Positions 41,190 through 41,990 of a DNA stretch of 64,000 nucleotides are shown in pieces. Numbering within the stretch: the stretch's first letter is position 1; each line of letters begins with the position of its first letter. The DNA comes from Escherichia phage P1. A program made the translations under genes and the position numbers. The notes beneath the pieces are model-generated. The model saw only the letters and a program-made list of their open reading frames with translations. It did not search any database and was not told the DNA's origin. The stretch lies in sequence record OP279344.1; one strand, given 5' to 3'.

Positions 41190-41990
41190 GCACAACAGGT
41201 AAGGGTATTTTGCGACGTCGGAGATCGCCGAGCTTGGCAGAGGGTTCGAATCCCTACGAAGTACCCTTACCGTTGTGATGAATGCGCAGGCTGATGCGCG
41301 AAAGACATTGCAGCTATTGCGGAAAAGAGCTGTTCGGCGGGGCAATTAAACGCCCGTGAGAGTCTGAAATAACCGCAAGCCGGAGATCAGCACCGGTCAT
41401 CACAACACAACAGGTAAGGGCATTCTCCCTTATGGAGCTTGGCTTAAATGCATCGAGTGCTCTTACCGTTGTGATGAAGTGCAGCTCTTTGAAGCAACCA
41501 GAAGATAAGCATCTGGCTTCACAACATAAACCGCAGGAACGACCAATAAACGGTAGTCCGTATGGAGAACACCCCGTTGAGGAAGAGGCCTGGCCGGAAC
41601 CGTAACCGGCACTACAACGTTGAGAACACTGGCGTAACGGGGTCATATCCCAATCTACGAATAAATGTTGCGTTGCAGCGTGACAACCAGTGTTCTCAAC
41701 ATTGTGGTGAATGCACAGGCTGATGTGCCGCAACTACAGTAGTGCGCGCTTTGCGGGGCTTGCTACAACCCTGTGTCGGAGTTCAGCACCGACCATCACA
41801 GTTTGATTCTCTGGCATGAGCATAACGCTGAAATAAGTCCAGTCTGGTGCGGCCCGATCACCCGCCGTTAGCTCCACGAAACGGAGCACGTAACAGGTAA
41901 GAGCATTCTCCTGTAACGGGTTCATATCCCAATCTACAGGTCCACCAAGAATGCTCTTTCCGTTGCGGTGAATGCGGCTAAGCGCACGCG
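41190..41990 (+). repeat. Array of four imperfect 70-110-bp hairpin repeats with tRNA T-arm-like cores and a conserved 3' tail
   Basis: Arms CACAACAGGTAAG(G/A)GCATTCTCC / ...CTCTTACCGTTGTG; cores GGGTTCGAATCCC, GGGGTCATATCCC, GGGTTCATATCCC; tail GTGAATGC(G/A)CAGGCTGATG; an extra 5' arm copy at ~40754. Confidence 0.7.

Follow-up and report, generated by a model that had tools for sequence, protein, structure and literature searches.

Alternating structured RNA modules between tRNA-Thr and tciA in a P1-family phage and in many unrelated phages

What is encoded between the gene for the threonine transfer RNA (tRNA-Thr) and tciA in phages of the P1 family? We addressed this question in a stretch of 64,000 nucleotides (nt) from Escherichia phage P1 (sequence record OP279344.1), hereafter called the window. 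The window belongs to a P1-family phage, with positions 40350-42150 being 99.4% identical to RCS47 and 99% identical to P1 over the parts in common. In the P1 record, the C1-controlled ban promoters and operator are followed by a "dicF-like region", tRNA-Asn, tRNA-Thr, plp, upl, tciA, tciB, tciC, tRNA-Ile and ban, in that order. A first-pass annotation, made from the letters of the window, had described four related hairpin units directly after tRNA-Thr, and had proposed that they were decayed tRNA genes, stable RNAs co-transcribed with the tRNAs, or recombination scars. These units sit exactly at the annotated plp and upl of P1, and they make up one half of a larger repeat that forms an array. 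We found that the array alternates two modules, a long hairpin (U) and a cloverleaf-shaped module (M), whose structures are real and under selection, belong to the + strand, and are widespread and linked to tRNA genes. The interval is thus very likely a conserved array of non-coding RNAs. Beyond the four units first described, we found the second module M, a fifth hairpin unit, a link to the STnc100 RNA family and a distribution that extends far past P1-like phages.

U hairpins and M modules

The C1-controlled ban operon has a non-coding leader at 40570-42120, in which the array occupies 40575-42090. On the + strand it reads: an element resembling transfer-messenger RNA (tmRNA), which we call T; hairpin U0; an unassigned stretch; tRNA-Asn (GTT; 41036-41111) and tRNA-Thr (TGT; 41114-41189), both called by ARAGORN and, as a pair, scoring 72.7 and 72.9 bits with the Rfam tRNA model; then U1-M1, U2-M2, U3-M3 and U4-M4, followed by tciA.

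U is an irregular hairpin of 70-100 nt; its stem is conserved and covaries, and its tip varies. The four units after tRNA-Thr are present, all on the + strand, as U1 (41191-41277), U2 (41406-41473), U3 (41610-41709) and U4 (41889-41967). Their folds gave z-scores of -4.9 to -7.3 (-5.8, -4.9, -7.3 and -6.3, respectively) against dinucleotide shuffles, 200 per unit, of which none was as good (0/200 for each of U1-U4). The fifth unit, U0 (40751-40833, + strand; fold of -39.9 kcal/mol, z -4.4), lies upstream of tRNA-Asn. With at most one mismatch, the 5' arm motif AACAGGTAAGRGC occurs four times in the 64-kb window against 0.2 expected, always in the array and on the + strand, and is found at 40755 in U0, at 41409 in U2 and at 41892 in U4; U3 has different arms that compensate each other. 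In an alignment of 24 diverse units, U0-U4 included, 93% of the cells of the 19-base-pair (bp) stem were paired, against 39-57% when the partners were slid, and double changes were found at 11 of the stem pairs; the stem of U1 itself shows covariation. A bulged A, a U.U mismatch and a U.G wobble are conserved in the stem. Moreover, about 36 G.U cells of the U stems would be A.C mismatches if read on the other strand, which indicates that the structure belongs to the + strand RNA.

The first-pass annotation had assigned T-arm-like cores to three of the units. Such cores are found at 41242-41254 (GGGTTCGAATCCC), 41639-41651 (GGGGTCATATCCC) and 41918-41930 (GGGTTCATATCCC), but only the first, in U1, has a canonical T-loop (TTCGAAT); the loops of U3 and U4 (NTCATAT) break the TTCRANY consensus, and the short tip of U2 has no T-arm. 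The tip of U1 combines a D-arm-like hairpin with a canonical T-arm (AGGGTTCGAATCCCT; AGGG-TTCGAAT-CCCT) placed one nucleotide from the stem, and the same tip recurs in Enterobacter phage BUCT554 and in contig L055 of IMG/VR. The tips of U3 (motif ACGGGGUCAUAUCCCAAUCUAC) and U4 (with ACGGGUUCAUAUCCCAAUCUAC) are of a second type, ACGGGNNCAUAWCCCAAUC inside a small stem. The U3 motif recurs with four different, compensating enclosing stems, in U4, in contigs L056/L111 and in Stx2a_1447. The tips are otherwise completely different between copies, but they come in recurring types, and canonical T-arms are about 11-fold enriched in them relative to the surrounding DNA. A tRNA origin is plausible for some of the cores, such as that of U1.

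A conserved tail had also been thought to close each hairpin unit. The tail GTGRTGAATGCRCAGGCTGATG was found only after U1 and U3, with two matches even when three mismatches were allowed, whereas the sequences after U2 and U4 have diverged. It is not the end of the hairpin unit, however, but the 5' end of module M. M spans 60-135 nt and alternates with U on the + strand. It consists of a 5' strand (e.g., GUUGUGGUG), the trinucleotide AAU, hairpin A (GCGCA-GGCUGA-UGCGC), a variable stretch of 40-200 nt, hairpin B (GCCGG-AGAUCAGCA-CCGGC) and, at once, the complement of the first strand. When folded in isolation, M forms a closing stem of 9 bp (stem P1), a linker of 3 nt, hairpin A, a middle domain and hairpin B abutting stem P1. 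The variable middle occupies the position of the anticodon arm, and hairpin B abuts stem P1 as the T-arm of a tRNA abuts the acceptor stem. In these models the topology of M is that of a tRNA, with a Watson-Crick contact between the two loops in place of the tRNA elbow (D-loop/T-loop).

We built a covariance model, R1, from an alignment of 42 diverse M copies. In these copies, 90% of the cells were paired, against 27-48% with the partners slid, changes on both sides were found at 15 pairs, and the observed values were reached by none of 500 shuffles. The closing stem has many different sequences and keeps its complementarity, and hairpin B shows compensatory changes at all five of its pairs. 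Loops A and B are complementary to each other (GCUGAU/AUCAGC). In one natural variant, loop A changes from GGCUGA to GUGGUGA together with a change of loop B from AGAUCAGCA to GAUCACC, and three single changes in the loops yield wobble pairs.

In the window, R1 matched M1, M3 and M4, and nothing else. M1 (41268-41410, + strand) scored 94.8 bits, and its isolated fold has stem P1 (5' strand 41272-41280, 3' strand 41398-41406), hairpin A (41284-41299), a middle hairpin and hairpin B (41379-41397). M3 (41697-41806, + strand) scored 72.2 bits; in its isolated fold, hairpin A (GCACAGGCUGAUGUGC) carries a compensated change from a G-C to an A-U pair, and hairpin B is GUCGGAGUUCAGCACCGAC. M4 (41958-42090, + strand), which resembles STnc100, lies directly upstream of tciA, its end being 32 nt before the start of that gene (42122); it scored 30.4 bits (E 2e-6) without having been in the training set, and its isolated fold gave a z of -2.6. 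M2 (41468-41525, + strand) is a short variant with, in isolated folds, a closing stem GUUGUGA/UCACAAC, a small 5' hairpin and the 3' hairpin CCAGAAGAUAAGCAUCUGG; R1 gave it 22 bits in its Sasha copy and 12 bits, misaligned, in the window. Stretches 83-95% identical to M2 are found in Sashavirus, in the N leaders of P22-like phages and in Klebsiella phage-plasmids.

A long hairpin lies directly 5' of M in about two thirds of the distinct copies, and where the tip has a canonical T-arm, this starts 38-41 nt before M in most cases (7-9 of 13). By eye, two small hairpins on the + strand precede U units in the window. The one before U3 (41592-41609; GGCCGGAACCGUAACCGG) resembles the 3' end of tRNA-Thr (…CGUUAAUCGGCACCA), and at this position other contigs have either a real tRNA 3' end or the hairpin GACGCCGGAUAAACGUAACCGGCAC. 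The one before U4 (41871-41887; GCUCCACGAAACGGAGC) also precedes U units in contigs L011, L022 and L097. Finally, the stretch between U0 and tRNA-Asn (40834-41035, + strand) includes ACGGGUAUAUCCCGU, another motif that looks like a T-loop, and CCGGAGACGUACCCGG, a hairpin similar to hairpin B of M4. Possibly this stretch is one more module that has diverged (M0); R1 found no match in it.

Distribution, exchange and the annotated reading frames

The first-pass annotation had left it to comparison with other P1-family genomes whether the repeats are conserved or the region encodes ordinary proteins. In those genomes and in unrelated phages, the repeats are conserved, and the interval very probably encodes no ordinary proteins. 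The two modules are present in hundreds of phages of Proteobacteria. Many unrelated phages have matches to parts of the interval, and these lie almost always in DNA that is not annotated; R1 found 110 complete copies of M in 100 loci. In lambdoid phages the modules lie between cI and the early-left genes, and in P22-like phages a module lies in the leader before N, downstream of nutL-like boxA/boxB sequences where these are visible. Other carriers include a Uetakevirus, a Sashavirus, T1-like Klebsiella phages and the Ackermannviridae phage Magnus. An exact 21-mer of hairpin A was present in at least 120 IMG/VR contigs and in genomes of Enterobacterales, Pseudomonas, Halomonas, Xanthomonadales, many Betaproteobacteria and several Alphaproteobacteria, and alpha-, beta- and gamma-proteobacterial prophages share it without any change. 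For 15% of the viral copies there is a tRNA at a distance of up to 300 nt, against 4.4% of random positions, and 64 of the 66 nearby tRNAs are on the same strand as the module. No neighbouring gene is conserved; the neighbours of 65 copies belong to many unrelated families.

Some of these loci deserve mention in their own right. In Klebsiella phage Magnus (NC_049462; locus L008, 660-2700), about 2 kb annotated as tiny open reading frames (ORFs) of 31-57 amino acids (aa) appear to be a long array of the same modules, with T, U with a tRNA-like tip, M and T-arm-like hairpins. In phages mEp460 and Stx2a_1447, the unannotated gap of 700 nt between cI and the early-left genes has conserved structured segments upstream of U (GGCACAUGCGUCG…GGUAGCCGGAAUGUGCAAGUCA), which are common to phage BUCT554, and about 2.4 kb separate the U-M unit from the small RNA (sRNA) isrK (67 bits; 82-158 of L003, mEp460; 27-103 of L004, Stx2a_1447).

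Copies 96-98% identical to M1 are found in lambdoid phages and in Klebsiella phage IME207 (L003, L004 and L005 were compared). This degree of identity points to recent exchange between unrelated phages, which may have proceeded via the repeated arms. Within the P1 family, genomes differ by insertions and deletions of whole modules that end in repeated arms. P1 itself lacks exactly one M1-U2 repeat, with the junction in the repeated sequence CTTACCGTTGTGATGAA; D6 has the same junction as P1 and, in addition, a real tRNA-Ser between M3 and U4. Real tRNA-Ser and tRNA-Tyr genes are located within the interval in D6, Ro157c2YLVW and pE2863-2. The tRNA-Ser(UGA) between M3 and U4 lies at 1166-1252 of the D6 locus (L130) and at 1071-1157 of the pE2863-2 locus (L132); it is labeled 'tRNA-OTHER' in RefSeq, and according to the authors of the D6 sequence its amino acid was not called by tRNAscan.

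With these observations, three ways of denying the modules an RNA function can be weighed. According to the first, the units would be decaying tRNA genes or recombination debris, functionless now, that mark past duplications and deletions in the tRNA cluster. The canonical T-arm and D-like arm of U1, the likeness of the hairpin before U3 to the 3' end of tRNA-Thr and the indels of whole units among P1-family genomes, with their ends in repeated arms, would fit this view. Compensatory changes, however, keep both helices across very different sequences; the exact 21-mer is shared by prophages of three classes of proteobacteria, and more than 100 complete copies are present in unrelated phages. 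Neutral debris would not keep structure and sequence at such depth, so that this view is weak; it is largely refuted by the covariation, and we consider it very improbable. Because the units are conserved and covary across unrelated phages, they are under selection and not decaying, and the proposal of the first-pass annotation that they are decayed tRNA genes does not describe their present state. Recombination scars, which it had also proposed, are present as a by-product, in the form of the whole-module indels with ends in repeated arms, but do not explain the units.

The second way is to read the modules as DNA, that is, as inverted-repeat elements, cassette-like or akin to miniature inverted-repeat transposable elements, with a role in recombination, transposition or replication. 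Long inverted repeats do surround variable cores, and the modules move between phages and are gained or lost as units. But G.U wobbles, including the conserved one, are tolerated, whereas the A.C mismatches expected for the other strand are not. Moreover, the orientation is fixed relative to transcription and to the tRNAs, and we found neither target duplications nor a recombinase or transposase gene nearby. A DNA element is therefore extremely improbable.

The third way is to take the interval as protein-coding, which is how P1 and RCS47 are annotated, with plp (a putative lipoprotein) and upl on the minus strand. The minus-strand ORFs in 41314-42207, which had been regarded as spurious at first sight, are 139 and 157 aa long in the window. 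When searched with tblastn, the plp/upl homologues in P1, D6, Ro157c2YLVW and pE2863-2 break across frames, with lengths of 139, 125, 135, 143 and 96 aa, and the ORFs overlap tRNA-Thr in P1 and D6 and tciA in the window. No Pfam family was found for seven candidate peptides from both strands, and of the matching RefSeq records of E. coli, 1311 in all, none of the 40 listed has a gene annotated within the interval; a few relatives carry real tRNA genes there. On the + strand, three fragments end in C-x3-C-x2-C followed by a stop (…CSYRCDECAG), which could suggest a small Cys-rich peptide. This candidate was rejected: the ending is the conserved RNA motif read in one frame, and the sequences upstream of it are unrelated between copies, often with stops. 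Candidate pseudogenes of HNH or endonuclease VII type on the + strand (CSYCGKEL…, …STGHHNTTGKGIL) had no Pfam match at E values up to 10, and were rejected since what look like motifs are conserved RNA arms translated in a single frame. The dismissal of the minus-strand ORFs as spurious is thus borne out; a coding function of the interval is scarcely credible, and what plp and upl cover is very probably structured RNA, misannotated as genes.

Known RNA families and the tmRNA-like element

In the window and in 11 loci of other phages, U, M and T gave no match at or above threshold to any family of Rfam 15. ARAGORN and the Rfam tRNA model (RF00005) called only the three real tRNAs, tRNA-Asn, tRNA-Thr and tRNA-Met(CAT), and no U or M unit at E values up to 10, in agreement with the earlier statement that none of the units folds into a canonical tRNA cloverleaf. 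The tRNA-Met(CAT) of ARAGORN (42831-42906, + strand) is recorded in P1 as tRNA-Ile2 (ileX-like, lysidine-dependent). Elsewhere in the window, Rfam identified the C4 antisense RNA with its a1/b1 target sites at 19292-19497 (+ strand; 68.8 and 51 bits), which is the known immI region of P1; a sub-threshold match to isrK (35 bits) overlaps C4 RNA there.

The closest relative that we found is STnc100 (RF02076). Its model matched M4 at 41964-42084 with 33.9 bits (gathering score 47; E 4.7e-5), over model positions 31-147 of 206. Like M, STnc100 has a closing stem ending in GGUG/CACC, followed by AAU, a hairpin on the 5' side, a middle part that varies and, directly against the stem, the 3' hairpin CCGG…CCGG; compared with the consensus structure line of Rfam, the folds of M1, M3 and M4 share this architecture. 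STnc100 loci are also carried by prophages and often lie beside tRNAs. In contrast, STnc100 appears to be free-standing, with promoter-like sequence upstream and a terminator-like hairpin downstream, whereas M is internal to a polycistronic array and each M module is preceded by a U hairpin. The STnc100 model did not match M1, M2 or M3, and R1 did not detect the canonical STnc100 loci, so that the family link rests on M4 and on the common architecture. Zhu, Shabalina and Storz described PasD as structurally related to STnc100 (PMC13192938), and PasD is an Hfq-dependent sRNA of lambdoid prophages, confirmed by northern blot (PMC8550237). PasA and PasB of enteropathogenic E. coli were rejected as M modules because the weak R1 match lies inside the coding sequence of an esterase. 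Save for the weak link to STnc100, we found no prior description of U, M or T in Rfam 15 or in the literature searched by sequence string and by topic.

Other systems are similar in plan. In the tRNA cluster of phage T4, species 1 and 2 (RNA C and D) are small structured RNAs among the tRNA genes, co-transcribed with them and released by tRNA-processing enzymes. They are single genes and not an alternating array of two modules, and the likeness is one of description only; RNA C and D are not known outside T4-like phages. YrlA (RF02553), like U, has a long end-to-end stem with conserved bulges and an apical domain that sometimes mimics the tRNA elbow. The YrlA model matched no U unit, its only match in the window (23.4 bits, against a gathering score of 69) spanning two real tRNAs, and E. 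coli K-12 is not known to have an Rsr/Ro gene. GOLLD and ROOL, like the array, are ornate non-coding RNAs of phages often found beside tRNA genes, but they are single large molecules and not repeats of small modules, and their models gave no match at E values up to 10. Engineered tRNA scaffolds also resemble M in having a variable insert at the anticodon-arm position of a tRNA-shaped frame.

Several candidates for known regulatory elements were rejected. The hammerhead, twister, pistol, hatchet and other ribozymes had no Rfam match at E values up to 10; CUGAUG does occur within hairpin A but, by eye, lacks stem II and the GAAA arrangement. R1, run unfiltered on positions 24000-32000 of HK022 (the estimated immunity region) in search of the put RNA, gave at best 8.3 bits (E 0.31). 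A nut site, with GCUCUUUA or GCUCUUA as boxA and hairpin A as boxB, was rejected because GCUCUU[UA] is present in the 3' arm of U in only 18 of 73 units; by eye, the nutL-like boxA/boxB of P22-like phages is upstream of the module and separate from it. No U or M unit qualifies as an intrinsic terminator. A mimic of GcvB R1 (not to be confused with our model of that name), or a sponge of the AgvB type, was rejected because the AgvB and GcvB models of Rfam gave no match and the CUUACCGUUGUGAUG arm is not conserved in the covarying units. CUUACCGUUGUGAUG resembles the GcvB seed. The U arm also has short likenesses to RNase P RNA (CAGGUAAGGGU) and to 16S ribosomal RNA (AACAAGGUAAC).

Upstream of U0, the array begins with T (40575-40750, + strand), a tmRNA-like element lacking the tRNA-like domain, which is not annotated in P1. 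T has a pre-tag region, a tag (40632-40664), a post-tag hairpin and a pseudoknot-like stretch. The tag, GCA AAC GAU GAU CUU AUG AUG GUA GCG GCC UAA, encodes ANDDLMMVAA in 10 codons followed by a stop. T scored 26.3 bits with tmRNA_permuted (RF04321) and 14.7 bits with beta_tmRNA (RF01850), both below threshold, in alignments that delete the tRNA-like domain of 111-131 nt. The pre-tag region, the SsrA-type tag and the post-tag hairpin align with the coding piece of two-piece tmRNA; the acceptor stem, the T-arm and the CCA end of tmRNA, in contrast, are absent in cis. We found at least 125 phage copies of T with 17 distinct tags, all of exactly 10 codons and nearly all of the form AN[DE]x…[AV]A-stop (e.g., ANDEQFLAVA, ANEEMYLAVA and ANDDVVLMAA). 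The constant length and form of the tag across copies indicate selection on what it encodes. ARAGORN called no tmRNA at T and there was no weak tmRNA match elsewhere in the window; when we looked for a tRNA-like domain in the rest of the window and around 79 copies of T, only ordinary tRNAs came up. The terminator before T (GGGGCUU…) was rejected as a hidden tmRNA acceptor stem, as it has no T-arm, no CCA and no G3.U70 pair. Copies of T in other phages have a U hairpin before them and U and M after them, which places T in the same modular system.

Possibly, U, M and T form a single phage-borne kit of tRNA mimics that acts on translation or ribosome rescue, with T as a tag template partnered in trans, but we regard this as rather improbable. 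If it were so, T, having lost its tRNA-like domain, would work with a separate tRNA-shaped partner (M, U or a host RNA) as a split tmRNA system of P1-like and many other enterobacterial phages, and a translation factor conserved in all bacteria would dock at the invariant hairpins of M.

Transcription, processing and possible roles

The array lies downstream of Pban. The ban promoters and the C1 operator (Op72), where the ban operon transcript starts, correspond to 40354-40383 (+ strand), as carried over from the P1 annotation (P1ban/P2ban and Obanab; NC_005856; the match begins at locus position 1501, which is 40350 of the window), and an inverted repeat is located at this site (40352-40383). 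No consensus sigma-70 promoter or terminator was found within 40570-42120. The sole terminator-like site of the + strand in 40300-42200 is a hairpin at 40544-40563. The "dicF-like" region of P1 corresponds to 40478-40579 of the window (+ strand) and ends in this strong terminator-like hairpin, which lies about 180 nt after Pban; the tRNAs and ban, downstream of it, need read-through or another promoter. In RNA sequencing of a P1vir infection, reads over the plp interval rose by log2 5.5 at 10 min and 7.5 at 20 min, and those over the upl interval by log2 4.7 and 7.1, respectively (bioRxiv 10.64898/2025.12.28.696737, supplementary file 6).

The proposal of the first-pass annotation that fared best is that of stable RNAs co-transcribed with the tRNAs. 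It is favored by the covariation, by G.U pairs that make sense on the + strand only, by the 64 of 66 tRNAs on the same strand, and by the lack of consensus promoters or terminators inside the array. On balance, we think it probable that the array is transcribed together with the tRNAs and that stable scaffold RNAs with the shape of a tRNA are processed out of the precursor. How this would work is a more tentative matter, and the processing-and-scaffold mechanism that follows has, in our estimation, somewhat less than an even chance of being right. Once C1 repression is lifted, a precursor would be made and cut into stable small RNAs by tRNA-processing and double-strand-specific RNases. The U stems, of 19-23 bp, are plausible substrates of RNase III. 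The cloverleaf of M would be possible only after U is opened or cleaved, U serving as a lock on the closing stem of M. The conserved parts would then form a scaffold that binds a highly conserved host factor, and the variable tip and middle would be its payload, acting by base pairing (as the Hfq-dependent PasD does) or as a decoy. The RNase III stems of ribosomal RNA operons and of the early messenger RNA of phage T7 lie between functional RNAs in a polycistronic precursor, and the U stems can be likened to them; the bulged A, the U.U mismatch and the U.G wobble of U, however, are not known as determinants for RNase III.

That the modules come as adjacent, conflicting structures bears on this mechanism and on one of its two main rivals. 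In 72 of 73 distinct units, 4-8 nt of the 5' strand of stem P1 (9 nt long) are shared with the 3' strand of U, so that the two helices are mutually exclusive, and yet both covary. This conflict could represent a switch, or a processing-dependent change of fold. When the whole region is folded to minimum energy (z -6.4), every U hairpin and every hairpin A and B is present and the closing stems of M are left open.

Several points weigh against the scaffold account. As just described, the whole-region fold forms U completely at the expense of the M closing stems, and, to judge from this model, the cloverleaf may never form in the unprocessed RNA. The terminator-like hairpin at 40544-40563 stands between Pban and the array, the transcription of which therefore needs read-through or an unseen promoter. 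The strandedness of the P1vir libraries is not stated (bioRxiv 10.64898/2025.12.28.696737). R1 misses the canonical STnc100 loci, and the STnc100 model misses M1 and M3. Cleavage by RNase III and the division into scaffold and payload are steps that we infer, and hairpins A and B, being nearly invariant, suggest a specific partner.

A different possibility is that the modules act in cis, as a leader switch in which the base of U competes with the closing stem of M to control read-through, RNA stability or translation of the genes downstream (tciA to ban in the window, N in lambdoid phages), with no free small RNAs being made. The mutual exclusion of two covarying helices in 72 of 73 units argues for such a switch, as do the presence of modules in leaders (ahead of N in P22-like phages and, in lambdoid phages, from cI to the early-left genes) and the 32 nt that separate M4 from tciA. 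Several tandem copies, however, are hard to square with one switch. There is no fixed downstream gene, the neighbours of the 65 copies being so diverse, and many copies lie between structural genes or beside tRNAs. By eye, U hairpins are not followed by runs of U, except for a short U-rich stretch after U0, and the array has no terminator-like site. Moreover, the boxA-like GCUCUU[UA] is confined to 18 of 73 units, R1 finds nothing in the HK022 segment, and the relative STnc100 appears to be a free-standing gene. We consider the leader switch unlikely.

It also seems conceivable that the modules are tRNA decoys used in counter-defence. Made early, they would divert anticodon nucleases, other tRNA-targeting defences or ribosome rescue, and an arms race would shape their variable parts. 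Such a role is compatible with the structural conclusions drawn above. The tRNA topology of M and the tRNA elbows in some U tips would suit it, as would the location of arrays with real phage tRNAs, on the same strand, and in early leaders under repressor control. Unrelated phages also exchange modules that are 96-98% identical, close relatives are not alike in copy number or in the variable cores, and the tmRNA-like T is found in the same arrays. A phage-encoded mini-tmRNA that inhibits host tmRNA is on record (PMC11915505). Nevertheless, an anticodon-like loop, a CCA end and acceptor identity elements are all missing from the modules, the tRNA model is silent on them at E values up to 10, and no defence or anti-defence gene is consistently nearby. 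The argument for decoys is one of resemblance, and we judge it to be quite unlikely.

P1 is among the phages most used in genetics, and the long-standing names plp and upl probably cover non-coding RNA. We regard the system as a form of the structured prophage sRNAs that are related to STnc100, with a partner hairpin not described so far, unusually deep sequence conservation and a tmRNA-like neighbour. The two modules, which occur in lambdoid, P22-like, T1-like, Sasha-like and Ackermannviridae phages as well as in prophages across the Proteobacteria, represent a widespread class of RNA that has not been described. Conservation at the nucleotide level, as seen in part of M, is usually a sign that an RNA docks onto the core machinery of the cell, and the tag template of T, with no tRNA-like domain, raises the question of whether these phages re-programme ribosome rescue. 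If the modules do act as tRNA-shaped scaffolds or decoys, they would represent a widespread, overlooked layer of the interaction between phage and host, and a natural counterpart of the engineered tRNA scaffold.

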